Position numbers and translations under genes: made by a program
Notes under the pieces: model-generated
Seen by the model: the letters and a program-made list of their open reading frames with translations, nothing else
Databases searched by the model: none
What the model was told of the DNA's origin: nothing
Shown: positions 3,620 through 57,327 of the stretch, one piece after another
How the letters are laid out: the number at the start of each line of letters is the position of its first letter
Numbering within the stretch: the stretch's first letter is position 1
Origin: Escherichia coli
Lineage (GTDB): Bacteria; Pseudomonadota; Gammaproteobacteria; Enterobacterales; Enterobacteriaceae
Length of the DNA stretch: 64,000 nt
Strand: one strand, 5' to 3'
Assembly (NCBI RefSeq): GCF_024298765.1
Contig: NZ_CP101210.1

Positions 3620-3939
3620 TCGTCCTTCTCCTTCCCCCTGCGATTAAAGGCCGCAATAACCTTGTCGCGTGCTTTCTCTGCGCCCATAAAACCGATTGAT
3701 GCGCCGATAAACGTCACGGCATCTTCAGGAAACCCGAAGAAGCGCAACGACCCGGCCACGGCCATGGCAAGAACGCCGCACGCCAGCGATCCCGTTACGG
3801 TCTGAACCAGTGTTCGTCCGTCATAAAGACTCATCAGCGCGGAAATGCTGACTGCCGCGCCTACTGCATACACCGTTGGCAGGTGGTCAAAGAGCCACGC
3901 AATAACCTGCTCTGTGATCCCTGTTTGAATGGTGCTCAC
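3616..3939 (-). CDS. holin (GTG start inferred)
   Basis: GTG at 3939 preceded by GGGAG, 2 nt after X stop; about 108 aa with hydrophobic TM segments and a charged C-terminus; overlaps endolysin start. Confidence 0.55.
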   Translation of the reverse strand: MSTIQTGITEQVIAWLFDHLPTVYAVGAAVSISALMSLYDGRTLVQTVTGSLACGVLAMAVAGSLRFFGFPEDAVTFIGASIGFMGAEKARDKVIAAFNRRGKEKDE

Positions 3940-10448: not shown

Positions 10449-10872
10449 CGCGCTTCGCTTGTCTGCTGCTTCGCCGGGGCATAAAAAATTTATGCCCCGA
10501 CTCTCCAGCTCCTGTATCAGTCAGATAATTTCACGACGCTTTCCTGCTGATTGCCATCATCGACAGTCAGACTCTTACGCAATCCCACCGCGTTGACTGC
10601 ATGTTCTCGCCGTCTCAGTGCGATTTTGACGGCCTTACCTTTCACCCCATCAAATCAAAAGCCCTCACGTCTTTTTCACGCTCAGCGTGAGAAATACAGC
10701 CATTCTGTTGTGTCGCTGCGACATCGTTCAGGGGATGCTATTTACCCCCTGAAACGCGGGCTGTTCCCCCGTCACCTGCGCGCAGAAAAAATGCGTTTTT
10801 TTGTGCACGCACGGATCCTTGACGGATCCAGCCACCATGCGGGCCGGAAGGGCAAAAAGTCGTTCAAAAAAA

Positions 10873-10899
10873 TTGTGCAAATTTGTGCACTATTGTGCA
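10873..10899 (+). promoter_or_regulatory. three direct TTGTGCA repeats at 10-bp spacing with a nearby TATAGT; candidate operator/promoter of the cargo operon
   Basis: TTGTGCA at about 10873, 10883 and 10893 (a fourth copy near 10801); TATAGT at about 10904; about 80 nt upstream of the cargo ATG. Confidence 0.35.
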
Positions 10900-10978
10900 T
10901 TTGTATAGTGAAAAAAATATAGCAGAAAGTATACTTAGCGCCTTGTGGGCTACGTTAACTTTGCAGGAACATTTGGAA

Positions 10979-12358
10979 ATGAAAAAAATCAATAAAGAAG
11001 ATTCTAAAAGAACCTTTTTACGTGGATGGTTGCGATTTCTTCGTAGCGTTGAGAGAGCTAAGAAAAAAAAGCCTGCGCAAGAGAAAAATGGTAGTCTTCG
11101 TTTTTCCGATGAAACAACTCCTGTCCAAAACCAAGTCGCTACGTTCATTGAAAATATATCGATTATAAAAGAGTATGACTCATCAATTCTTCGTCGTGAC
11201 GCAGAGAAGATATTAATACCTAAATATTTTGACTTATATGACAATCCAGAGAAATCTCTGCTATTTATTAGTGCAGCCACAAAATTAATTGCAAGAGGTA
11301 AATGGAAATCATATATTTTTGATTACAAGAAAAACAAAAAACACTGTCTTGGTCTTGAGTGTCTATTAGGTGTTGCTCTTACAGCAGCAAGGCAAAGTAA
11401 TATAAATTTCAAAGATACGATGATTCAGATTAATGGTATCTACCCTAAAGATGAACAGTATCTTGAAATTATCAGGGATGTCGGGCTTGTAAAAGAGATT
11501 AGTAATGCTGCACCAGGTAAAGTTCTGGACTCTACTGAAGCATCGAAAAAAGCGAATCCGAAGAAACGAATCTTCTCTGCTGATAGTATCGGAAAGGAGA
11601 ATGCTTCTGCCTTTGCCCATGACAGAAAAAATGTCACTGCTGAAAAATTTACCGCATACATAAACGAATGCTTAAATGATCATAATTTAAAACTTGTACA
11701 TGAGGCAGAAAAGCATTTAACTTCCTGCATGGGGGAACTCCTTGATAATGCGGAGCGGCATTGTGGGTTAGAGCAACGCCCACGCTGGTATTTGAGAGGT
11801 TTTGTTAATAATAACGTACGAAACCCCATATGTGAGTTGGCTGTTTTCAATTTTGGGAAAACTATCAGCGAAACTTTTGATAATTTACCTGAGGATCATT
11901 TTTCATTAAGTCAACAAGTTAATCCATACATAAATAAGCATATTAAGAAAAAGGGTATGTTTAAGGAAGGATTAACAACAGTAGCGGCCTTGCAAGGGCG
12001 GGTGAGTTGTAAAAACGAGAAAGAAACTGACAGTTCTGGCACCGGAACAATTGAATTATTGAAGTTATTTCAAGATATGCATGATAATCTTAAAAAAATG
12101 GGAAGAGATATTAAAGGTGGGATAAAAATGACTTTAATATCTGGTAGTACTCATATTAACTTTGATGGATCATATAAATTAAAGCAAAGGTTGGTTAATG
12201 ACGAGGAAAGTGACATTTTTACTTACCCTTTTAATGATGTAGGGCTTGAATCTGAACCGGATCGCAACTATCTTAAGCGTATGAAGGATGCTCGATTTCC
12301 TGGAGTTATGATCAATATTCGTTTTCCTCTACCAGAAAACGCCACCCAGCGAACTTGA
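10979..12358 (+). CDS. cargo gene 1: GHKL-type ATPase / anti-sigma-factor-kinase-like protein, 459 aa from ATG 10979
   Basis: N-box-like ELLDNAERHCG, possible degenerate G1 (FNFGKT) and G2 (SSGTGT) boxes; AT-rich; AGGAA 8 nt before ATG; the track start at 10883 is a TTG. Confidence 0.6.
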   Translation: MKKINKEDSKRTFLRGWLRFLRSVERAKKKKPAQEKNGSLRFSDETTPVQNQVATFIENISIIKEYDSSILRRDAEKILIPKYFDLYDNPEKSLLFISAATKLIARGKWKSYIFDYKKNKKHCLGLECLLGVALTAARQSNINFKDTMIQINGIYPKDEQYLEIIRDVGLVKEISNAAPGKVLDSTEASKKANPKKRIFSADSIGKENASAFAHDRKNVTAEKFTAYINECLNDHNLKLVHEAEKHLTSCMGELLDNAERHCGLEQRPRWYLRGFVNNNVRNPICELAVFNFGKTISETFDNLPEDHFSLSQQVNPYINKHIKKKGMFKEGLTTVAALQGRVSCKNEKETDSSGTGTIELLKLFQDMHDNLKKMGRDIKGGIKMTLISGSTHINFDGSYKLKQRLVNDEESDIFTYPFNDVGLESEPDRNYLKRMKDARFPGVMINIRFPLPENATQRT

Positions 12359-12368
12359 GGACAGGTAC

Positions 12369-12713
12369 ATGAAAATGGCTGACATCACCATAGATTTCAA
12401 TAAGTTAGTAAAAGATAGTAACAAGAAACTTTTTGCTGGACGTTCTAATGGGCGCCAGGCCTATGATTACTTTAATATAGGGAAATTTTGCACAACCAGT
12501 AATGATAGATTATATCTATTGATCCCCAAGGGAATTGTTGTATCAAGCTCATACTTTCTAGGTATGCTTGAAACGGTTTTGCCGAAATTTTCTTCGCCTA
12601 GCGAATTTTATAGTCGCACTGTACTTGATGGTCGTGAATATAAAGAAGGTATGCTTTCTGAATTAGATAGAGCTGTAAGGAGAGGCTTACATAAAAATGT
12701 TCCCTTCTTTTAA
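12369..12713 (+). CDS. cargo gene 2: small STAS-like (anti-sigma-factor-antagonist-like) protein, 114 aa
   Basis: GAGGA 8 nt before ATG, overlapping the stop of gene 1; segment LLIPKGIVVSSSYFLGMLETV recalls the SSSF-type STAS-like signature. Confidence 0.55.
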   Translation: MKMADITIDFNKLVKDSNKKLFAGRSNGRQAYDYFNIGKFCTTSNDRLYLLIPKGIVVSSSYFLGMLETVLPKFSSPSEFYSRTVLDGREYKEGMLSELDRAVRRGLHKNVPFF

Positions 12714-13506
12714 AAATATTTTTCAAATCAAAATGACAGCGCTGTCTGTCATTTTTTTTATATTCCCCGCAGCTTGCTCTGTGACAGATTTTTCCAATAA
12801 AGAAAACATTGAATGTAATGAGTCACTTTATCCAAACACGCCTTTTTATATTTCCGATTCAGGACTTAGTGGTATATCATCACCGTTTTTGTTATCCGGA
12901 AACCCGAATGATGGCTTGATGTTTTGTGAAAAGGCAAACGACACCTTTCATAAGTTATCTCTGGCAAGGGATAACAAAAAAGATTTATTTACTAATTATT
13001 TCAAAGATGTTCCAAATTCCTATGATATATATAATATTGTAAAGGTTCCGGAAAATGGTCCAGAGTGGATTTCTATTGGCATCTCTTTATTTGCTTTAGT
13101 TTCATCCTTTGTTATTCCTTGTGTTCAACATAGAAAAGAACGTAAAGAAGCTATTAATGAAGGGTATTGGGTAAGAGAAGTAATTATGCCTAAAATTAAT
13201 GGGTTGGCATTCGATGTTGTGCAAAGTTTTAAAAACTCCATGGCATTATCAGAAGAGGAGTTTCTTAGTGTATTCAGTAATACTCTTTTACCAAAACTAG
13301 GAGAGTTACGGGATTCATTATATTTGTTTAATAGTTTTCCAGAATTAAATGCAGATATTGAAAATCTAGAAAGTATTTGTGACTCCTTGGAGGAAGAAGT
13401 TTCCAATCATATAGACTCGCCTAATGAAATAAGAATTTCTGATATATCAATGTTTCATTCCAAATTAATACAGAAATTAATTTTACTTCATAAGAAGATA
13501 GGTTGA
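12697..13506 (+). CDS. cargo gene 3: membrane protein, candidate effector (N-terminal signal/anchor, one internal TM, acidic C-terminal domain)
   Basis: Overlaps gene 2 by 17 nt; hydrophobic N-terminus TALSVIFFIFPAAC and TM WISIGISLFALVSSFVIPCV; AT-rich. Confidence 0.6.
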   Translation: MFPSFKNIFQIKMTALSVIFFIFPAACSVTDFSNKENIECNESLYPNTPFYISDSGLSGISSPFLLSGNPNDGLMFCEKANDTFHKLSLARDNKKDLFTNYFKDVPNSYDIYNIVKVPENGPEWISIGISLFALVSSFVIPCVQHRKERKEAINEGYWVREVIMPKINGLAFDVVQSFKNSMALSEEEFLSVFSNTLLPKLGELRDSLYLFNSFPELNADIENLESICDSLEEEVSNHIDSPNEIRISDISMFHSKLIQKLILLHKKIG

Positions 13507-13551
13507 TTTTCAAGGCCTCCTTATTCCTAGGGCGGCCTTAGCTCTATATTT

Positions 13552-16344
13552 CTATCGTGTTCGATGCAATAAACTGATTTTTTTGCGAGCATGTTTAGTG
13601 GTTTCACTGATTCTCTGTGCGTGCTCTGCGTCGCGGATGGCGCGCAGCATGTCAGAAAGTACGGTAACGGGTGTTTTCATGGTGTTCTGGTCTTGCTGAA
13701 GTGTGGATGCCAGGCGTGCGGCGGCTTCAGGGTCTGATGCCTCTAGTTGTTCCAGATAGCTGGCGACCGGGTTATGGCGGATCTCCGTGCTGCTTACGCC
13801 GTGATTACGACTCAGGCGTTGCCAGAGCTGCGTGATTCGGCTGTCCGGGCGGGTATCCTGTTTGCGTACAATTTCAAATCCCTGCGGTGCAATGATGCTG
13901 CCGCCAACGTACAGACTGCCGCCTCGTAACAGGTGCTGCATCTGCTGTTCACCGATATGCAGGCCGAGAGATTCAGCAGACTCCCGCCATTCTTTAGCGA
14001 GTAACTCGTGGTTATCAGGCAAAGGCTGTGGCTGTTTGCGGCTCTGTGTCCAGTTCTGCATTTCATCACTGCTGTTTTTTGCCTGTTTGTCACGCAGCGA
14101 ACGCATCAGTGCCCGGCGTTCGTGCCGTTTCAGTGAGCGCATCCATTCATTCACGTCAACGCCTTCAGGAAGCCGCGGCCACGGTGCTGGCCGTTCTTCC
14201 GGCTGTTCTGTCCCGTTGTTGTCCGTTTCCTGTACACGGGGACAGTTATTGCCACGAGTCCAAGGGGCGGCAGGGCCGCCCTGAAGGTCAAAACCATTTT
14301 CGCGGGCGCTGTCTTCCGTTTCCGGTTTACGTCTTACCAGTTTCCAGTTATCCGGATGCGTGCACACACGGGAGGATTCCCCGATGAGTGGTGACCAGAT
14401 CCCGTAAATCTGTACGCTCTGTTCGCCGTAATCATTCAGCTCATCTGCGAGGTCGTAGGCGGTGCGAATCAGGTAGTCTTTGCGTGGAACAAGTACGCCG
14501 CCCTGTTTTTCAATGTAGGTGGCAAAACACCCGGCATCGGCGGCAGCGAGTACCGCATCCATTGCGTCATCTTTCAGTCGTTGCGGGCCTTCCGGGTTGC
14601 GTGCCATCTGGCTGGCAAGGCGGCGCAGTTCACGCCACACCTGACGGGAGGGGATGCCAAAGAACTGGAACTGGCGGACCCGATGAAGGCGCGCCCAGCC
14701 GATGGCGCGCTCCACACTCTCGGCCATTGATTTTCCGGTTTCGTGGTCAACGCGTGGCTTGCCCGTTTTCGGGTCGATGCCATCCACGGCGCGGCTGTCC
14801 AGGTTCTTTCCGATGTAGGTCGCGATATAGCTGGTTGGTGTGCCTTTTGAGCCGTCGACATACTCCGCCTTAAAGCGCGGAGTAATATCATTGCCCAGCT
14901 CGTGGCGGTCTTCCTGAATGGCAATATCGCGGGTGATGGCCACGATGCTGTCGATTTCTTCCGGATGAGCAAAGACCATCATATGCCAGTGCACGGTGCC
15001 GTCATGGTGAGGCTCCACCGTGCGGATGCCATACCAGCGAAGACCGTCGCGGTTCAGTTTTTTGCGGACCGCCGCAAAAAACGTGTTAACCAGGTAATCG
15101 CTGGAGTCGCGCATGGTGGCCCCGTTCCATTTGGGATTCGGATGACCGTTCTCTGTTGTGGCGTGGTATTTTGACGGGCAGGTGACAGTCAGAAACACCG
15201 CTTTGTCGCCACGGGCTTCGGCCAGAAGTTCCAGCCCCTTCATGGTGGCCATCATTTCTGCCTTACGGTGAACCGGGTTACTTACTCCCGCGTAATACAC
15301 CGTCTCGAGATCAATCGTGAACCCGTCTTCGTTTTCCAGCATGAAACTTTTCAGGAAATCGCGTGTTTTCTCGCGCTGTGCGCGAAACTCGCTTAACGCG
15401 TCCTGGCTCAAATAGGGCGATGTTTTTCTGGAAACCAGACAGGCGGCGCGGAGTTGTTCTTCTCTCCACTCGCAACGTAACAGCCACAGTTTGCGTTTCC
15501 ACCATTCCGCACAGGTCAGGCGAAGGATTGCGCCCGGCAGCAGTTCTGTGTCCGGTTCGTTCCTCCGGTCTTTGTCTGTTGTCAGTGCGTCATAATGCGG
15601 AGGCATGGCGTGCAAGTGTAACGCCATGCGGGCCAGCATCTGATACGCCTTCAGCGTTACATCCATGGTCAGCTCGCCATCGGTCGCGCCAAAACCATCG
15701 CAGAGTTTTTCGAAGGTGCTGCTGAACATCGCCGCCGTCATGGTGGCCAGCGTCTGTATCTGGTGTTTGTTGAGTTGCGGCAGGTAAAGCAAATCGTCCA
15801 GGCGTTCACGTCCGGCAAGGGACCGATAACCCGGTGTCAGCCAACGGCTGTCGGTGCGGTCCAGACGTACGAATATTTTGCGCAGGGTTCCGCGCGCGTA
15901 GCGTTCAGCCTGCCAGCTCTTTTTGCCTTTCTGACGATCGGATTCCTGTTTTTTGCGCAGGAAAGAGAGGTGGCGGCTCAGAGGTTCACGCAGATAAACG
16001 GGAAGCACCTTCAGTGTGGCAAAAGCACGGGCCACCGGGTCTTGTTCTGTTGCCTGACGCTTGCTGATGATGCTTTGTGCCAGCTTTTCACGCTGTCCGG
16101 CTTCCTCAAGGGATGCCATGAGTTTTTTACCCACGGTGGATTGTGCGAAAAAGGCTTCCTCCTTCGCTTCCTGTTCTTTCCGGGCCTTTTTGTCCGCCTC
16201 AAGGTAGTAACGGATGGCGCGTTGCAGCTCGGTTTCAGTTTCCTGCCTGCGCTCCGTAAATCTGTCCGGATCAATGGCTGGCCGTGGTTCATTCCAGCTC
16301 CATGCAAACTCACTCATGGCTGGTATCCCGTCACGCGCTGCCAC
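13552..16344 (-). CDS. replication initiation endonuclease (P2 gpA-like, rolling-circle HUH type)
   Basis: 930 aa with HWHMMVFAH HUH-type motif; position between early genes and cargo as P2 A. Confidence 0.8.
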   Translation of the reverse strand: MAARDGIPAMSEFAWSWNEPRPAIDPDRFTERRQETETELQRAIRYYLEADKKARKEQEAKEEAFFAQSTVGKKLMASLEEAGQREKLAQSIISKRQATEQDPVARAFATLKVLPVYLREPLSRHLSFLRKKQESDRQKGKKSWQAERYARGTLRKIFVRLDRTDSRWLTPGYRSLAGRERLDDLLYLPQLNKHQIQTLATMTAAMFSSTFEKLCDGFGATDGELTMDVTLKAYQMLARMALHLHAMPPHYDALTTDKDRRNEPDTELLPGAILRLTCAEWWKRKLWLLRCEWREEQLRAACLVSRKTSPYLSQDALSEFRAQREKTRDFLKSFMLENEDGFTIDLETVYYAGVSNPVHRKAEMMATMKGLELLAEARGDKAVFLTVTCPSKYHATTENGHPNPKWNGATMRDSSDYLVNTFFAAVRKKLNRDGLRWYGIRTVEPHHDGTVHWHMMVFAHPEEIDSIVAITRDIAIQEDRHELGNDITPRFKAEYVDGSKGTPTSYIATYIGKNLDSRAVDGIDPKTGKPRVDHETGKSMAESVERAIGWARLHRVRQFQFFGIPSRQVWRELRRLASQMARNPEGPQRLKDDAMDAVLAAADAGCFATYIEKQGGVLVPRKDYLIRTAYDLADELNDYGEQSVQIYGIWSPLIGESSRVCTHPDNWKLVRRKPETEDSARENGFDLQGGPAAPWTRGNNCPRVQETDNNGTEQPEERPAPWPRLPEGVDVNEWMRSLKRHERRALMRSLRDKQAKNSSDEMQNWTQSRKQPQPLPDNHELLAKEWRESAESLGLHIGEQQMQHLLRGGSLYVGGSIIAPQGFEIVRKQDTRPDSRITQLWQRLSRNHGVSSTEIRHNPVASYLEQLEASDPEAAARLASTLQQDQNTMKTPVTVLSDMLRAIRDAEHAQRISETTKHARKKISLLHRTR

Positions 16345-17969: not shown

Positions 17970-18320
17970 TTATAAATCAGCCTGTTTAATAAAACTTTGC
18001 CCGCGAAGCAAACGATCGACTGTGCGCAGTGCTTCGTACAATGTAAAATCCTGCCCGAACTGATTATCGCCGTTGCTTAATGCAAAAATGCGGTTTCCGG
18101 TAAACGGATTGCGTGAGCATCTGTGAACCACTATTCCAGCTTTCTCAATCAGCCAGGTGTGTTCGCCGATTTGTTTTACAGCGTGCCCATCTGGTGTTGC
18201 GTGCGTCTCGTTCAGGTTATAGCGATTGTTACTACGTGATGCACTGGTAGCGACGTGGTGTATATGGCGTTCTACGCCATTACGAAATTTGGAGTATGGA
18301 TTATTAGCGTGTTTTTTCAT
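17970..18320 (-). CDS. hypothetical phage early protein
   Basis: 116-aa ORF in the early operon downstream of the cox-like gene. Confidence 0.5.
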   Translation of the reverse strand: MKKHANNPYSKFRNGVERHIHHVATSASRSNNRYNLNETHATPDGHAVKQIGEHTWLIEKAGIVVHRCSRNPFTGNRIFALSNGDNQFGQDFTLYEALRTVDRLLRGQSFIKQADL

Positions 18321-18341
18321 GATGATGCTCTGTTCATTGTT

Positions 18342-18545
18342 TTAGCTGTTAGCCAAAGCGTCTTTTAACATCGCCACAAGGTTTACTTCAGGCTTTTCCA
18401 TTTTGGCACGTTTGGGGCGGATAATAATTCGACCGTCAGCCAACATCTTTTTGCATGTATTAAGAGGGATACCTGTTATCTCTGCATATTTCTGCAGGGA
18501 TACATAGGGGGCATTCACATTGATATTGATGGTTATACCTGACAT
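18342..18545 (-). CDS. Cox-like small DNA-binding protein (excisionase/early regulator)
   Basis: 67 aa; YVSLQKYAEITGIPLNTCKKMLADGRI resembles the Cox-type helix-turn-helix pattern; position in the early operon. Confidence 0.55.
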   Translation of the reverse strand: MSGITININVNAPYVSLQKYAEITGIPLNTCKKMLADGRIIIRPKRAKMEKPEVNLVAMLKDALANS

Positions 18546-18561
18546 CCCACTAGCCTCCTGA

Positions 18562-18768
18562 TCAGGAAGATTTGTTTTGTTCTTTCTGGGTTAGCTCTAG
18601 GCCGCGAAGGAAGATCATGCGCGCCATGTTAGAGGATGAGCGTTGTTCTTTAGTTGCCATTTCATCAATGACGGCTCGCTCTTCGAGGGACAGCCGAAGT
18701 GCCAGTCTTGGACCTGTGGCGGTGTTACGCGGAATGCGTGATCTGGTATCGTGAAGAACTTGTTTCAT
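18562..18768 (-). CDS. small ribbon-helix-helix-like regulator, first gene of the early operon
   Basis: 68 aa with RLALRLSLEERAVIDEMA; divergent from the repressor gene. Confidence 0.45.
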   Translation of the reverse strand: MKQVLHDTRSRIPRNTATGPRLALRLSLEERAVIDEMATKEQRSSSNMARMIFLRGLELTQKEQNKSS

Positions 18769-18843
18769 AGTGGTATATTGTGATCATCTAATAGCTCGTG
18801 AAATCATTTTGGTATCAAAAAAGATACCTGTCAAGGTTTTTGT
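18769..18843. promoter_or_regulatory. lysis-lysogeny switch region with divergent early and repressor promoters
   Basis: 75-bp AT-rich gap between divergently transcribed early operon and repressor gene, as in P2/186. Confidence 0.5.
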
Positions 18844-19248
18844 ATGAAAAATGATATTGGTCAGCGGTTGCGTGAGGAAAGGGAAAGATTGGGGCTTAGT
18901 CAAGTTGCTATGAGCGAAATTGGTGGAGTCAAAAAGCTAACTCAGCTTAGATATGAGAAAGGAGATAGCTTTCCTGATGCTGCGTATTTGGCAGCGCTGT
19001 CTCGTTTTGGCCTTGATGTTCAGTATGTTGTGTTGGGAATTCACTCACCTGAAACTTATAACGATGATGAGCAGGAGTTGATTACTCGCTTTCGAGCAGC
19101 TTCGTTAGATGTAAAAAACGCGGTGATCGGGGCTTTAAAAAGTGCGGGCAGTGAAAAGGAAACTCAGCCATCAGGGCGTGAGTTAAATATTTCTGGTGGT
19201 AATAACCGTATCGCTGGTCGTGACTATAACGAAACTAAGGGTAGGTGA
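18844..19248 (+). CDS. immunity repressor (CI/C-like, HTH XRE family)
   Basis: 134 aa; N-terminal LREERERLGLSQVAMSEIGGVKKLTQLRYEKG helix-turn-helix; divergent from the early operon. Confidence 0.75.
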   Translation: MKNDIGQRLREERERLGLSQVAMSEIGGVKKLTQLRYEKGDSFPDAAYLAALSRFGLDVQYVVLGIHSPETYNDDEQELITRFRAASLDVKNAVIGALKSAGSEKETQPSGRELNISGGNNRIAGRDYNETKGR

Positions 19249-19263
19249 TAGTAGGGAGGTGAC

Positions 19264-19914
19264 ATGGCCGTCAACTCAAACGGTTCAAACAATCGCGTTG
19301 CTGGGCGTGATTTTCACGAAAAGAATATTCAGATAGAGCGATATGATGGTTCTCATACCGTCAATATCGCAATCCCTTCGAATAATGATGATGACGCTCG
19401 CCCTTTGCTTAAGGCACAGCGTAAGGAGCTAAATAGCTTGGTTGCTGCTATTGCAGAAGCTAGCAATACTGAAGCGTTTATTATTTGGCAAAAAGTACAT
19501 GCGGAGATTGGTGTAGCTGGTATTGATGATATGACAATAAATCAATATAAAACAGCGGAGAGTTTTCTGCATGCAATGCTTGAGCGATGTAAAGATCATG
19601 ATGCCTGTAAGACTCTTGTAAGTTTATTACTACGTAACAGTGAAGACTGTGGACTTCGACAAAAACTTCTGCGGTATTGCCATATCAATTTCGGTACAGG
19701 ACGTTTAAACGATCTTACTCGTTCTCAGTTACAGTCTGCATTGTCGTGGTTAGAGCAACAATCGGTATCAAGCCACACAGAGAATTCGACCTTACCAGAA
19801 GTCCGCCTTCGTGCTTCAGAATTAATCCGATTTTATCCAAAAGAAATAATATTCTTTATCTGCGTAGGGGTTTTGGTAGGCGGAGCCATTTCTAGGATGT
19901 TTTTTAATTTGTAA
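19264..19914 (+). CDS. moron protein with C-terminal membrane anchor, unknown function
   Basis: 216 aa; GGGAGG 6 nt before ATG; AT-rich; C-terminal TM IIFFICVGVLVGGAI; lies between repressor and integrase. Confidence 0.55.
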   Translation: MAVNSNGSNNRVAGRDFHEKNIQIERYDGSHTVNIAIPSNNDDDARPLLKAQRKELNSLVAAIAEASNTEAFIIWQKVHAEIGVAGIDDMTINQYKTAESFLHAMLERCKDHDACKTLVSLLLRNSEDCGLRQKLLRYCHINFGTGRLNDLTRSQLQSALSWLEQQSVSSHTENSTLPEVRLRASELIRFYPKEIIFFICVGVLVGGAISRMFFNL

Positions 19915-19943
19915 TCTTACTTGAGCTAAATTGAGGCAATGAC

Positions 19944-20291
19944 ATGAAAGTAAAAAAGGTTCAACTATTAGTTGCTTTTTTATCTATGTTTTCTTTTTCC
20001 GCCGTCGCAATGCCTTTTAAAACTATTGAACGTGAGAGTTTCAATGGAGTATGGCCATTTAATACAGATGAGGTTCAATTGCAGTGTCTTGATGGTAATC
20101 CTTATGTGATGAATTTTGACGATAATAAGTTATATGCGCTTACAGGTTTGGCTCGAATAAAAGGTAAAACATTTGGTGCGTTACCGTTAGATAACAATAA
20201 TCCATTTTGGCTAGATAATGATGCCGCCCCTGGGTTAAAAAAGAATCTGGGGGACGTCACTAAGGCTGCATTTGATTTATGTGATAAGTAA
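19944..20291 (+). CDS. secreted/periplasmic moron protein, unknown function
   Basis: 115 aa with signal peptide MKVKKVQLLVAFLSMFSFSAVA and two cysteines; AT-rich. Confidence 0.55.
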   Translation: MKVKKVQLLVAFLSMFSFSAVAMPFKTIERESFNGVWPFNTDEVQLQCLDGNPYVMNFDDNKLYALTGLARIKGKTFGALPLDNNNPFWLDNDAAPGLKKNLGDVTKAAFDLCDK

Positions 20292-20296
20292 CAAAG

Positions 20297-21298
20297 ATGT
20301 CGGTTCGTAAGATTCCATCAGGTAAATGGCTTTGCGAATGTTATCCCTACGGAGCATCGGGAAAACGCATTCGTAAACAGTTTGCGACAAAAAGTGAGGC
20401 GCTCTCTTATGAGCGCCGTTTAATGAATAGTAGAGTTGGAGACGAGTTTCAAGATGGTTCTGGTCCTCGTCTTTCTGAGTTGATTGCTCGTTGGTTTGAG
20501 ATGTACGGCAAAACCTTGTCCTCTGGTGCAGAGCGCAAAGTCAAACTTGAGGCGATTTGTTCTAGGCTGGGAGATCCATTTGCTTCTCAGTTTGACAAAA
20601 ATATGTTTGCTACTTATCGGGAAAGAAGGCTATCAGGAGAATGGAATCCCAAGGGGAAGAAAAAACTTAGTGAAGCAACCGTTAATCGCGAGCAGTCATA
20701 TCTACATGCTGTTTTTGCCGAACTGAAGCGCCTTGGGGAGTGGTCTGGTGAAAACCCCCTGACTGGAATTCGCAAGTTTCGTGAGGAAGAAAAGGAGCTG
20801 GCGTTTCTGTATGTAGATGAGATTGAACGCCTTTTGATTGCGTGTGATGAGTCACGGAATAAAGATTTGGGGGTTGTTGTCCGTATTGGGCTTGCGACTG
20901 GTGCTCGGTGGAGTGAAGCAGAAGGATTAAAGCAATCTCAAGTACTGCCCGGTCGAATCACATTTGTTAAAACTAAAGGAAAGAAGAACCGCACTGTACC
21001 GATTTCACCTCAATTGCAGGCTATGCTTCCTAAAAAACGAGGAGCGCTATTTTCACCATGTTATGAGGCTTTTGACGCTGCAATTAAGAGAGCGAAGATA
21101 GAGCTCCCTGATGGGCAATTAACTCATGTGCTACGTCACACGTTTGCTAGTCATTTTATGATGCGGGGCGGAAATATTCTTGTGTTGCAAAAAATACTGG
21201 GGCATAGCGATATAAAAATGACTATGCGTTATGCGCATTTTGCTCCGGGTCATTTAGAGGCTGCTGTTGAATTAAACCCTTTTGACAATAGAGGGTAA
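20297..21298 (+). CDS. int: tyrosine-type site-specific integrase
   Basis: 333 aa; C-terminal HVLRHTFASH...ILGHSDIKMTMRYAH catalytic R-H-R-Y pattern; next to the att/tRNA fragment. Confidence 0.9.
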   Translation: MSVRKIPSGKWLCECYPYGASGKRIRKQFATKSEALSYERRLMNSRVGDEFQDGSGPRLSELIARWFEMYGKTLSSGAERKVKLEAICSRLGDPFASQFDKNMFATYRERRLSGEWNPKGKKKLSEATVNREQSYLHAVFAELKRLGEWSGENPLTGIRKFREEEKELAFLYVDEIERLLIACDESRNKDLGVVVRIGLATGARWSEAEGLKQSQVLPGRITFVKTKGKKNRTVPISPQLQAMLPKKRGALFSPCYEAFDAAIKRAKIELPDGQLTHVLRHTFASHFMMRGGNILVLQKILGHSDIKMTMRYAHFAPGHLEAAVELNPFDNRG

Positions 21299-21404
21299 AA
21301 AGTGGCGATAAAAAGTGACAATAGATTCAAATGGCGTCGTATAGAGCTATTTGCAAAGTTAATAAAATCATAAGGTTATGATTTATAAATGGTGGTTGAT
21401 AGTT

Positions 21405-21459
21405 TTTAAAATCCCTCGGCGTTCGCGCTGTGCGGGTTCAAGTCCCGCTCCGGGTACCA
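21405..21459 (+). other. prophage attachment-site core: 55-nt duplicate of the tRNA-Leu (leuZ-type, anticodon TAA) 3' end, not an intact tRNA
   Basis: TTTAAAATCCCTCGGCGTTCGCGCTGTGCGGGTTCAAGTCCCGCTCCGGGTACCA matches the remembered 3' portion of E. coli leuZ; the upstream 5' half does not fold as an acceptor stem. Confidence 0.7.
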
Positions 21460-21502
21460 TGGGAAAGATAAGAATAAAATCAAAGCAATAAGCAGTGTCG
21501 TG

Positions 21503-21527
21503 AAACCACCTTCGGGTGGTTTTTTTG
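21503..21527 (+). terminator. rho-independent terminator (native tRNA operon terminator)
   Basis: ACCACC-TTCG-GGTGGT hairpin followed by a T7 run. Confidence 0.65.
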
Positions 21528-21654
21528 TGCCTGCAACTTGTCGTTACACCCTCCTTAATTTTTAATCACCGGCAAAGCCACTCAAAAAGTATCTCTGATA
21601 CGGACCGGCATGTAAGATAGGTGCTGGCGAGTTGAGATCCACAAGGAAAAGCGT

Positions 21655-22320
21655 ATGAAAACGGGACCGTTAAACGAAAGTGAGTTGGAATGGCTGGACG
21701 ATATTCTGACCAAATACAACACTGACCACGCCATTCTTGATGTGGCGGAGCTGGACGGTTTATTGACGGCGGTGTTGAGTTCTCCGCAAGAGATTGAACC
21801 GGCACAGTGGCTGGTTGCCGTGTGGGGTGGGGCTGACTATGTGCCGCGCTGGGCGTCAGAGAAAGAGATGACGCGCTTTATGAACCTGGCTTTTCAACAT
21901 ATGGCCGATACCGCAGAGCGTCTGAACGAATTCCCGGAGCAGTTTGAGCCGTTATTCGGCTTGCGAGAAGTCGATGGCAGCGAGCTGACGATTGTTGAGG
22001 AGTGGTGCTTTGGCTATATGCGGGGCGTGGCACTTTCTGACTGGTCAACGTTGCCCGATTCGTTAAAACCAGCGCTGGGGGCGATTGCGCTGCACGGTAC
22101 TGAGGAAAACTTCGAGCGGGTTGAGAAGATGTCGCCAGAAGCGTTTGAAGAGAGCGTAGATGCCATTCGACTGGCGGCGCTTGATTTACATGCATACTGG
22201 ATGGCGCATCCGCAGGAAAAAGCTGTTCAGCAACCGATCAAAGCAGAAGAGAAACCGGGTCGTAACGATCCTTGCCCGTGCGGCAGTGGTAAGAAATTTA
22301 AGCAGTGCTGCCTGCATTAA
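21655..22320 (+). CDS. yecA: YecA (UPF0149 family protein with C-terminal SEC-C zinc motif)
   Basis: 221 aa ending [13 protein letters not shown]; conserved gene order. Confidence 0.85.
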
Positions 22321-22329
22321 GAGGTCAAA

Positions 22330-22360
22330 TTGGGTGTCAGCGTTAATTCTGGCACCCAAT
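22330..22360. terminator. hairpin between convergent yecA and tyrP (possible bidirectional terminator)
   Basis: TTGGGTGTCAG ... CTGGCACCCAA inverted repeat; no clear T-run. Confidence 0.35.
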
Positions 22361-22369
22361 AAGATCTAA

Positions 22370-23581
22370 TCACCCCACTTCTGGTAACAACCCTGCCGCA
22401 ATCAAAAATTGCACGCCAATCACAGCAATACCACAGAGAAACACCACCACCAGCGCCGGACGACCACCTTTGACCCGGTAACCCGCCTGAGGATTGTGCT
22501 TTCTGCTTTGCCAGGTCAACAGCGAAGGGATAATCAATGCCAGTACCGCCAGCGCCACACCGGCGTAACCCAGCGCCATCACAAATCCTCGTGGATAAAA
22601 CAGTGCAAACGCCAACGGCGGCAGAAAGGTAATTGCACCAGTTTGCAATCTTCCACCAACGGTATTTGAACGCTGAAACAAATCTGCCAGATAATCAAAT
22701 AAGCCTAACGCTACGCCGAGGAAGGACGTGGCGAGGGCTAAATCAGCAAATAAATGCACTGCCAGCTCAACATGCGGAGAGGCCACCATTTCGCGTAACG
22801 CCTGTAACAGCCCGTTTAATCCGGCATGATTAGCCAGCAATCCCATAAAGGTTGTTGAATCAATGCTGCCAAGGGTCGCCAGCTGCCAGAAAATATATGC
22901 CACCAGGGGGATCGCACTACCGATTATAAACACCCAGCGTAGCTTACGAATGTTGCCATCCATATAGCTGACAATACTCGGCACGCTACCGTGAAAACCA
23001 AACGACGTAAAAATCACCGGGATTGCAGACAGTGCCAGTCCCTGTTGCAACGGCAGGGTTAAAAGATTCACTTTGTGAATATGCGGTAGCAGCAATACCA
23101 GCATCACCACCAGAAAAATAATTTTGGCGCTGAACAGAAAACGGTTAAATAAATCGACCAGCGATGTCCCGACACAAACCACGCCACCGGCAACAAAAGT
23201 GAACAACAGCACGCCAGCGGTTGCCGACATTGAAATACCTGTCCAGTCGCTGATGCTGGAGGCCAACAATTCACCGGCACCGCTGATGTATGCCGCAGTC
23301 AGAGCATACATTAAGAACATCATACTGAAGCCCGTCAGCCACTGACCGTAGCGTCCCAGATAGCGTTTTGCCAGCGTGCCCAGACCGGTATCTGCCGGGA
23401 CATGCTGGTACACCTCCAGTAGTAATAGCGCCGTGTAGCACATCAACGCCCAAAGCCCAATCAACAAGATTAACGTGACGCTAAAACCAACACCTGCCGC
23501 AGCCAGCGGCATTGCCAGCATGCCTGCGCCAATTGTGGTTCCCGCCACGATAAAAACACTTCCCAGAGTTCTGTTTTTCAC
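22370..23581 (-). CDS. tyrP: tyrosine-specific transport protein
   Basis: 403-aa polytopic membrane protein; sequence and context as E. coli tyrP. Confidence 0.9.
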
Positions 23582-23771
23582 GCTTTCTTCTGTCCTGACG
23601 ATCTTTATGAGTGATATCTGCGGCGCAGGTTAAGGCATAACGGCTGATTCGTCAAACCGGCGTTACATATGGTGTAAATATAAATGTACAATAAAAAGCG
23701 TTCAGTTCTGCGCTGGCGCAAAGTCTTCATAAGCGGCAATCGCTACGCTAGGCTTTTTTTGAGGAGGAACG

Positions 23772-24011
23772 ATGGACTCTATTCACGGTCATGAAGTGTT
23801 AAATATGATGATTGAATCAGGCGAGCAATATACGCATGCCAGTCTGGAAGCAGCAATTAAAGCGCGTTTTGGTGAACAGGCACGTTTTCACACCTGCTCG
23901 GCAGAAGGGATGACAGCGGGAGAGCTGGTAGCGTTTCTGGCAGCAAAAGGCAAATTTATACCTTCGGAAGAAGGTTTTTCGACCGATCAGAGTAAGATTT
24001 GCCGTCACTGA
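23772..24011 (+). CDS. yecH: YecH (small uncharacterised protein)
   Basis: 79-aa ORF; position between tyrP and ftnA. Confidence 0.75.
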   Translation: MDSIHGHEVLNMMIESGEQYTHASLEAAIKARFGEQARFHTCSAEGMTAGELVAFLAAKGKFIPSEEGFSTDQSKICRH

Positions 24012-24018
24012 TTTGAAA

Positions 24019-24042
24019 CGGCGGCAGTAAACCTGCCGCCGG
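24019..24042. terminator. hairpin between convergent yecH and ftnA
   Basis: CGGCGGCAG-loop-CTGCCGCCG inverted repeat. Confidence 0.4.
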
Positions 24043-24048
24043 AGAACA

Positions 24049-24546
24049 TTAGTTTTGTGTGTCGAGGGTAGAGAGTTCTTTGTCGATAAAATACAAACCT
24101 TCGCCGCTTTTGCCTGCCAGACTTAATTTATCAATAATCGATTTGAACAGTTTCTCTTCTTCATGCTGCTCAGAAACATACCATTGCAGGAAATTAAATG
24201 TTGGGTAGTCCTGATTGGTCATTGCAGCATGAGCCAGTTCGTTAATTTTTTGCGTGATTAATTGTTCGTGTTTATAGGTTTCCTGGAATAATTCATCAAG
24301 TGAGGAATATTCAGCAAACGGAGATTCAACGGTATTAATACGCGGTAAGTTGCCGGTATCAGTCAGATAATCAAACAGACGCTGCATATGCGTCATCTCT
24401 TCCTGGGCGTGACGGCGCAGGAACGCGGCAGCACCTTCGAAGGTATGATAGCTGCACCAGGCGCTCATTTGCTGATAAAGCAGTGAAGAGTACAGTTCCA
24501 GGTTCATCTGCTCATTAAGTTTTTCAATCATTTCTGGTTTCAGCAT
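24049..24546 (-). CDS. ftnA: ferritin (non-haem iron storage)
   Basis: Starts [21 protein letters not shown] (165 aa) at internal Met of the track ORF. Confidence 0.9.
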
Positions 24547-52479: not shown

Positions 52480-53235
<756 letters not shown>

Positions 53236-53281
53236 TTTTTACCGTTGCATCATGTCGCCCAATATGATGCTTGCTCGTACC

Positions 53282-53315
53282 AGGCCCCTGCAATTTCAAC
53301 AGGGGCCTTTTTTTA
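53282..53315 (+). terminator. rho-independent terminator after cutC
   Basis: AGGCCCCTG-loop-AGGGGCCT hairpin followed by a T7 run. Confidence 0.75.
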
Positions 53316-57228: not shown

Positions 57229-57327
57229 GCCTGATGCGCTATGCTTATAAGGCCTACATAGTCCCTGCAATATATTGAATTAGCAAGGTTTTGTAGGCCG
57301 GATAAGGCGTTCACGCCGCATCCGGCA
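57229..57327. repeat. REP/BIME palindromic elements downstream of torZ
   Basis: GCCTGATGCGCTATGCTTATAAGGCCTAC and GTAGGCCGGATAAGGCGTTCACGCCGCATCCGGCA match the canonical REP palindromic unit. Confidence 0.7.

Follow-up and report, generated by a model that had tools for sequence, protein, structure and literature searches.

The integrase-proximal junction of a P2/HP1-like prophage at the tRNA gene leuZ of Escherichia coli

The minimal attB of Haemophilus phage HP1, whose host belongs to the Pasteurellaceae, is an anticodon stem-loop, and strand exchange by its integrase is said to have been mapped, by Hauser and Scocca in 1992, to a 7-bp overlap within that stem-loop. A review table lists for the same phage an 18-bp attB, a 420-bp attP, IHF as the host factor and Cox as the directionality factor (PMC4111918). 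Amongst the P2-like phages, those with 186-type integrases are treated, in the passages of Nilsson and colleagues (PMC3448106) that deal with integration, as a tRNA-integrating group set apart from the P2 type; their attL and attR are described there as sharing common cores that restore the tRNA and extend variably beyond it, over 50–110 nt. The sites named in those passages are tRNA-Ile, tRNA-Met, tRNA-Lys and ssrA, with tRNA-Leu given for HP1. The prophage considered below resembles this group in its integration into a tRNA gene, in its long common core and in the position of int at one end of the prophage; it differs in its site, E. coli leuZ, which goes without mention in the same passages.

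leuZ has been listed as a site of prophages and integrative elements in Shiga toxin-producing E. coli (STEC) O121:H19 and O145:H28 (PMC8767318, PMC7067040). Two lambdoid phages, mEp390 and Fostie, have an attP that carries the same leuZ block as the prophage described here, at 88.5% and 86.7% identity, respectively, and through the stem of the terminator; neither block begins more than 2 nt away from the anticodon-loop base at which the block described here starts, and that of mEp390 begins at this very base. Because these attP sequences carry the leuZ block and because of the STEC listings, leuZ is to be regarded as a shared and well-used target. The mEp390 block has a terminator stem with a different loop and a compensated change in the T stem, which means that the whole 3′ half must be used together. 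In contrast to these likenesses, the integrase of mEp390 is only 21% identical to that of the window, which rules out close integrase homology as the reason for the shared target. In both lambdoid phages, moreover, the integrase gene lies on the other side of the core, ending up beside the intact tRNA, and there is a separate Xis-type excisionase. The arms of the mEp390 attP (L004 2450–2458 and 2631–2669) contain ATGGCGAA repeats, one on the + strand and four on the – strand, with a TGGCG core as in the arm repeats of the HP1 type; this may be coincidence or convergence.

Four further deposited records, ON470596.1, ON470604.1, ON470624.1 and ON470627.1 (vB_EcoM-569R10, 720R5, 705R4 and 783R5; 20–27 kb), are 100% identical to positions 21405–21540 of the window. 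Their matches include 12 nt of host flank past the repeat, they contain no match to the integrase of the window, and they have the appearance of other elements integrated at leuZ whose records retain host flank.

The leuZ fragment and the phage arm beside it

The window, that is, the whole 64-kb stretch of E. coli DNA that was analysed, has P2-family structural and replication genes to the left of the junction, and yecA and tyrP to the right of it. We shall argue that positions 21299–21528 are attR, the junction on the integrase side, of a P2/HP1-like prophage (Peduoviridae) inserted in leuZ, the gene that closes the glyW-cysT-leuZ tRNA operon of E. coli, and that attP and attB recombined inside 124 bp of identity, leaving the host tail here and restoring the tRNA at attL. 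We put the probability of this reading at about 0.93. What was found is a partial tRNA 3′ end, with int and phage genes on one side and host genes on the other, together with a repeat at the far end in relatives, unoccupied sites in other genomes and an attP form of the phage. The features are collected in Table 1.

The last 55 nt of leuZ, the gene for tRNA-Leu with anticodon UAA, are present on the + strand at 21405–21459 (TTTAAAATCCCTCGGCGTTCGCGCTGTGCGGGTTCAAGTCCCGCTCCGGGTACCA), and all 55 are identical to those of the intact leuZ of the closest complete genome, a gene confirmed by ARAGORN. The first base of the fragment is also the first of the anticodon loop (TTTAAAA), its end is the CCA, and it begins exactly 106 nt after the stop codon of the integrase gene. 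A 52-nt exact core of this tRNA tail occurs only once in the window (21408–21459, +), and none of 100 shuffles gave a match. The element is a tRNA 3′ fragment without a usable 5′ half, and not a gene, because the five bases 5′ of it (TAGTT) do not match the anticodon stem (AGGGA), because ARAGORN finds no complete tRNA across the whole 64-kb window, and because the Rfam tRNA model gives it 17 bits, short of the gathering score of 29.

The first-pass annotation of this DNA had already described a 55-nt match to the 3′ end of leuZ, from anticodon loop to CCA, lying 106 nt past the integrase stop and followed by a hairpin with a T-run and then by yecA; it had added that the preceding bases could not supply the 5′ half of a tRNA. 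These statements are borne out, the first of them to the base. The extent that it gave to the feature, 21373–21531, does contain the fragment and the terminator, but its start takes in 32 nt of phage arm DNA.

Table 1. Features at and near the junction, in coordinates of the window.
Feature	Position	Strand	Basis
Cox-like excisionase/repressor gene; likely directionality factor for excision	18342..18545	–	PHROG phrog_575 'Cox-like excisionase and repressor', E 1.2e-27; homologue in NC_049344 annotated alike
CI-type helix-turn-helix repressor gene; first in the rightward cI-orf-orf-int block, which reads towards the junction	18844..19248	+	PHROG transcriptional regulator/repressor families; counterpart in G12 is 'helix-turn-helix domain-containing protein' in RefSeq
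Tyrosine integrase gene, HP1-type, 333 aa	20297..21298 (including TAA stop)	+	58% to HP1 integrase, E 2e-139; 1AIH, E 4.6e-75; phrog_1 integrase, E 1.4e-76
Phage P arm of attR (int stop codon to core)	21299..21404	+	Missing from empty sites; present beside the core in attP-form contig L009 with 3 mismatches in 106 nt
Candidate arm-type integrase binding repeats: TGGCGAT (21303–21309), degenerate TGACAAT (21315–21321), TGGCGTC (21332–21338)	21303..21338	+	Motif matches
Possible IHF site, AATCATAAGGTTA, one mismatch to WATCARNNNNTTR, in the only stretch of the P arm alignable with HP1 attP	21366..21378	+	Consensus scan and alignment with HP1 attP; weak consensus match
Anticodon-loop heptamer TTTAAAA; left edge of identity and likeliest 7-bp crossover (overlap) region	21405..21411	+	Identity with leuZ starts here
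Displaced, non-functional leuZ 3′ fragment: anticodon loop, 3′ anticodon stem, variable arm, T arm, 3′ acceptor strand, CCA	21405..21459	+	Exact leuZ match; no tRNA called; Rfam 17 bits
att repeat common to attR (here), attL and attP: tRNA 3′ part, spacer, terminator; 124 bp	21405..21528	+	100% to the copy completing leuZ in G12 (L001 7133–7256) and NCCP 15734; exact in attP-form contig L009 (3808–3931)
Intrinsic terminator of the glyW-cysT-leuZ operon, probably the host copy: 9-bp stem, UUCG loop, T7 run; now 3′ of int	21502..21527	+	RNA fold; same element directly after leuZ in empty sites; SCU-111 SNP for host origin
yecA, first host gene to the right of the junction	21655..22320	+	ORF list; RefSeq 'UPF0149 family protein YecA' at the corresponding place of a genome 100% identical here

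The integrase encoded next to the fragment is identical to HP1 Int at 197 of 337 residues, end to end, with homology across the arm-binding, core-binding and catalytic parts, and its best match amongst solved structures is the catalytic domain of the HP1 integrase, with the P2 integrase structures ranking lower. Amongst deposited phages the only close relative of the protein is that of prophage record 520873 (96%), followed by those of SopEPhi, PSP3 and ENT90 (52–56%) and of P88 (39%). The resemblance to HP1 extends beyond the enzyme. In both phages int reads towards attP, and the 3′ part of tRNA-Leu(UAA) follows in the same orientation, starting at TTTAAAATCCC in HP1; both have TGGCGRY repeats with an 11-bp spacing at comparable positions, which in HP1 are on both arms, two copies lying to the left of the loop, at about 100 bp as here, and four just past the block of host-like sequence. 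Some similarity reaches the last ~40 nt of the P arm, the host-like block runs well past the tRNA 3′ end, and a gene for a Cox-type directionality factor is present here too. The two systems differ in their hosts (Enterobacteriaceae here) and in how the block is completed, since here it ends with the operon terminator, at 124 bp, whereas that of HP1 continues through a spacer and a second tRNA-like gene to about 180 nt. The arms are otherwise not alignable. HP1 has a hairpin of its own right after int, whereas no second hairpin was found 3′ of int in the window. The remainder of the phage is P2/186-like, of the kind found in E. coli, and the related prophage record NC_049344 is placed in the genus Xuanwuvirus. 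Judged by these likenesses, the att module at leuZ is probably of the HP1 type.

The TGGCGRY repeats would be putative arm-type sites for Int. The lone TGGCGRY in the P arm of the window has a P of about 0.16, which is not significant by itself; in the complete genome G12 the P′ arm has three such repeats with an 11-bp spacing (L001 7274, 7285 and 7296), for which the Poisson P is about 1e-4.

The far end of the prophage, unoccupied sites and the attP form

The attL of the prophage in the window lies beyond the left edge of the window, and the evidence on the far end comes from three close relatives with complete genomes, G12, SCU-111 and NCCP 15734. Amongst 5426 complete E. coli genomes none covers the window in full; the best match, SCU-111, covers 95% of positions 1–23000 at 97.9% identity, and positions 1–21298 are colinear with the prophage of G12 at 98–99.6% identity, except for a cargo slot at 10900–13592. 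In G12 the order is uvrC-pgsA-glyW-cysT-leuZ, then a P2-family prophage of ~36 kb that ends in int, then the fragment, yecA and tyrP, and this order is retained in SCU-111 and NCCP 15734. At the far end in all three there is an intact tRNA-Leu(UAA) with the same 3′ sequence, in the glyW-cysT-leuZ cluster. The direct repeat shared by the two ends is 124 bp long, not 55; it runs from the anticodon loop through the CCA, a 42-nt spacer and the terminator, and ends 2 nt past the T-run. Its two copies are identical at 124 of 124 positions in G12 and likewise in NCCP 15734, and are separated by 35,992 bp in G12, 36,988 bp in SCU-111 and 37,015 bp in NCCP 15734. Because the copies are 36.0–37.0 kb apart in these relatives, the intact leuZ of the strain from which the window comes is predicted to lie roughly 15–16 kb past the left edge.

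The first-pass annotation had expected the reconstituted tRNA at the far end of the prophage, outside the window, and had held that the lack of a matching repeat or tRNA at the other boundary would speak against its reading. Both the 124-bp repeat and the intact leuZ are present there in the three relatives, which supports the expectation. Its proposal to look for the empty site in related strains was followed in silico, with a synthetic empty site made by joining the leuZ side of G12 to the yecA side of the window. This reconstructed site is uninterrupted in 3792 of the 5426 complete E. coli genomes, in many of them at 100% identity and in one piece. In the same set the int–fragment–yecA junction is found in 492 genomes (about 9%) and the left junction, between leuZ and the phage, in 614.

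A search pattern that demanded the P arm, the block and the P′ arm in one piece matched one contig of IMG/VR (L009; 34,888 bp). In this contig the P arm (from 3702), an identical 124-bp block (3808–3931) and the P′ arm are contiguous; the P arm differs at three of 106 nt, the contig and the window encode the same integrase protein, and the phage ogr, D and sheath genes follow. The contig could be an excised circle or the junction of a tandem lysogen, and it gives the sequence of attP either way. Since the repeat reaches the end of the terminator and the attP-form contig has the whole block, the phage possesses a tRNA tail and a terminator of its own. 'Escherichia phage 520873' (NC_049344.1) was considered as a source of attP and rejected, since the record is an extract from a prophage, taking in host yecA but ending short of attL. 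That record (L003), deposited as a 'complete genome' and the exemplar of the species Xuanwuvirus xv520873, carries an int that is broken into two ORFs, and its tail sheath gene is interrupted by an IS100.

It might be supposed that the junction is a fossil, the prophage being defective or having lost its left end, so that the fragment is an inert scar without a partner repeat. The left end is indeed out of view in the window, and decay is evident in the related 'phage' record, a prophage whose int is split and which has acquired an IS100. In the window, however, the int ORF is intact and encodes the same protein as the attP-form contig, cox and cI genes are present, and the phage DNA as far as 21298, the cargo slot aside, is colinear with the G12 prophage, with SCU-111 and NCCP 15734 also carrying the cargo cassette of the window. 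We consider a fossil junction unlikely.

Origin of the two copies and the point of exchange

Which of the two copies is the host's can be asked in SCU-111, where they differ at a single base, equivalent to position 21494 of the window: the attL copy has A and reads AAGCAGTG, and the attR copy has T and reads AAGCTGTG. The attP form in IMG/VR has A at this position, and a synthetic empty site with the T allele and the right-flank haplotype of SCU-111 is matched at 100% in five genomes, each of which has a single unoccupied site. T would therefore be the allele of the host lineage and A that of the phage, which indicates that the copy of the terminator on the yecA side is host DNA, that the copy following the intact leuZ is phage-borne, and that the crossover falls within 21405–21493. 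This argument uses one lysogen, SCU-111; G12 and NCCP 15734, whose copies are identical, are uninformative for placing the crossover. The description of the element at the junction as the native terminator, beside the displaced original 3′ end of the tRNA, is thus upheld as far as the yecA-side copy is the host's, but the terminator belongs to the duplicated att sequence and does not merely adjoin it, and an identical copy is carried in the phage attP.

Within the interval that is bounded on the left by the first base of the anticodon loop, where identity with leuZ begins, and on the right by the SNP, the crossover is most likely to take place across the 7-nt anticodon loop TTTAAAA. The loop is favoured because identity begins exactly there, and because the phage would not need an exact copy of the variable arm outside a working tRNA. 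In attP the five bases to the left of the loop, TAGTT, barely resemble the AGGGA of the anticodon stem, and one half-site of the core would thus be poor.

Crossovers in the T loop are common among other integrase subfamilies, and in both attP and attB the T arm of leuZ (GCGGG-TTCAAGT-CCCGC) forms a perfect inverted repeat whose halves are 7 nt apart. Were strands exchanged there (about 21436–21442), the phage would have contributed 21405 to about 21440, and host DNA would begin only after that, which is compatible with the SNP at 21494. However, the first base of the anticodon loop is exactly where attP and host become identical, a phage recombining in the T loop would have no reason to keep 21405–21435 exact, and the attP of HP1, whose integrase is 58% identical, starts at the same place; an exchange in the T loop is accordingly quite improbable. 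That the copy in the window is instead phage-borne, with the far-end leuZ keeping its native 3′ end and terminator after a crossover at the right edge of the repeat, fits the identical copies of G12 and NCCP 15734, which cannot discriminate, but is scarcely credible given that in SCU-111 the yecA side has the T of the five unoccupied sites and the leuZ side the A of the attP form, and that a crossover to the right of the terminator would make the exact tRNA copy of the phage pointless.

With exchange at the anticodon loop as the preferred reading, the course of integration would be as follows. The phage attP brings a 124-bp copy of host DNA that begins with the leuZ anticodon loop and takes in the whole of the operon terminator, and the HP1-type tyrosine integrase would recombine it with the chromosome inside this identity, most likely at TTTAAAA (21405–21411), presumably with the assistance of IHF, Cox being needed for the reverse reaction. 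At attL, outside the window, the 5′ half of the host leuZ would be joined to the phage-borne 3′ half and terminator, giving a tRNA operon that is intact and properly terminated. At attR the original host 3′ half and its terminator would stay behind int as a non-functional remnant; everything from 21405 rightwards would be unchanged, and yecA would keep its native upstream region.

The terminator, the neighbouring genes and the meaning of the junction

The terminator hairpin, GAAACCACC-UUCG-GGUGGUUUU, occupies 21502–21523, beginning 42 bases past the CCA, and has its T-run (T7) at 21520–21526. The 76-nt stretch that contains it folds at –19.7 kcal/mol (z = –2.2). A simple terminator scanner did not list 21502–21527, which we take to be a false negative since RNA folding shows the hairpin clearly. 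Of the host genes beyond it, yecA is annotated in one RefSeq genome that is 100% identical to the window across 20300–22600.

In sequence terms the leuZ terminator is the first one downstream of the cI-orf-orf-int block, and it may end those transcripts both in the prophage and in the free phage. The two conserved ORFs of the block that have no assigned function lie at 19264–20291, between the cI-type repressor gene and int, and read with int towards the junction. One encodes a 216-aa protein (phrog_5825, with a weak match to a membrane protein) and the other a 115-aa protein (phrog_2950, DUF2511); they are probably cargo expressed in lysogeny.

A broader proposal is tentative, and we would give it somewhat less than even odds: that the captured leuZ terminator serves the phage twice, ending int transcription in the free and the integrated state and terminating the host tRNA operon at attL; that the HP1-type integrase/att module recognises the same anticodon-loop core of tRNA-Leu(UAA) in two bacterial families; and that the unrelated integrase of mEp390 arrived by convergence at this core and at an arm motif, TGGCG, much like that of the HP1 type. 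The double use of the terminator suggests itself because the 124-bp block ends 2 nt past the T-run and int is followed by no other hairpin.

Several observations concern the prophage at a distance from its junction. Between the portal gene and the replication endonuclease gene, the stretch 10450–13550 appears to be a variable cargo slot, which we take to correspond to the known hotspot of P2 for anti-phage genes. In the window it contains three ORFs on the + strand (10883–12358, 12369–12713 and 12697–13506), for which no PADLOC or Pfam match was found; their only PHROG match is that of the 491-aa ORF to phrog_3364, of unknown function (E 2.9e-07). The cassette is shared with SCU-111 and NCCP 15734, where its products are 'hypothetical proteins', whereas the slot of G12 has DUF3800 and ParM/partition genes instead. 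The slot may hold an uncharacterised system. In these leuZ prophages a tail module of sheath, tube, E, tape measure and U runs in the opposite transcriptional direction to the V-W-J-I-H-G module of baseplate and fibres (L001 11897–17482 versus 18180–24432; L003 27238–34782), an arrangement from which the tail gene order of P2 differs. Between the modules, in a region outside the window, a DNA invertase and alternative fibre genes are found in some relatives. Elsewhere in the window, matches at the Rfam gathering score are those of ordinary chromosomal small RNAs, namely MicL (53007–53314, +), C0465 (39671–39748, –) and ES036 (CssrF; 57250–57292, –).

The junction is an ordinary feature, of a kind already known and at a known site, and nothing in it challenges current understanding. 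It is of use chiefly to annotation, where it fixes the right boundary of the prophage at 21404/21405–21528, and the attR reading explains what would otherwise appear to be a tRNA pseudogene. For the host, the insertion leaves both the tRNA operon and yecA functionally intact. For the phage, the homology with HP1 provides a ready and experimentally characterised model for the integration and excision of this common E. coli prophage.
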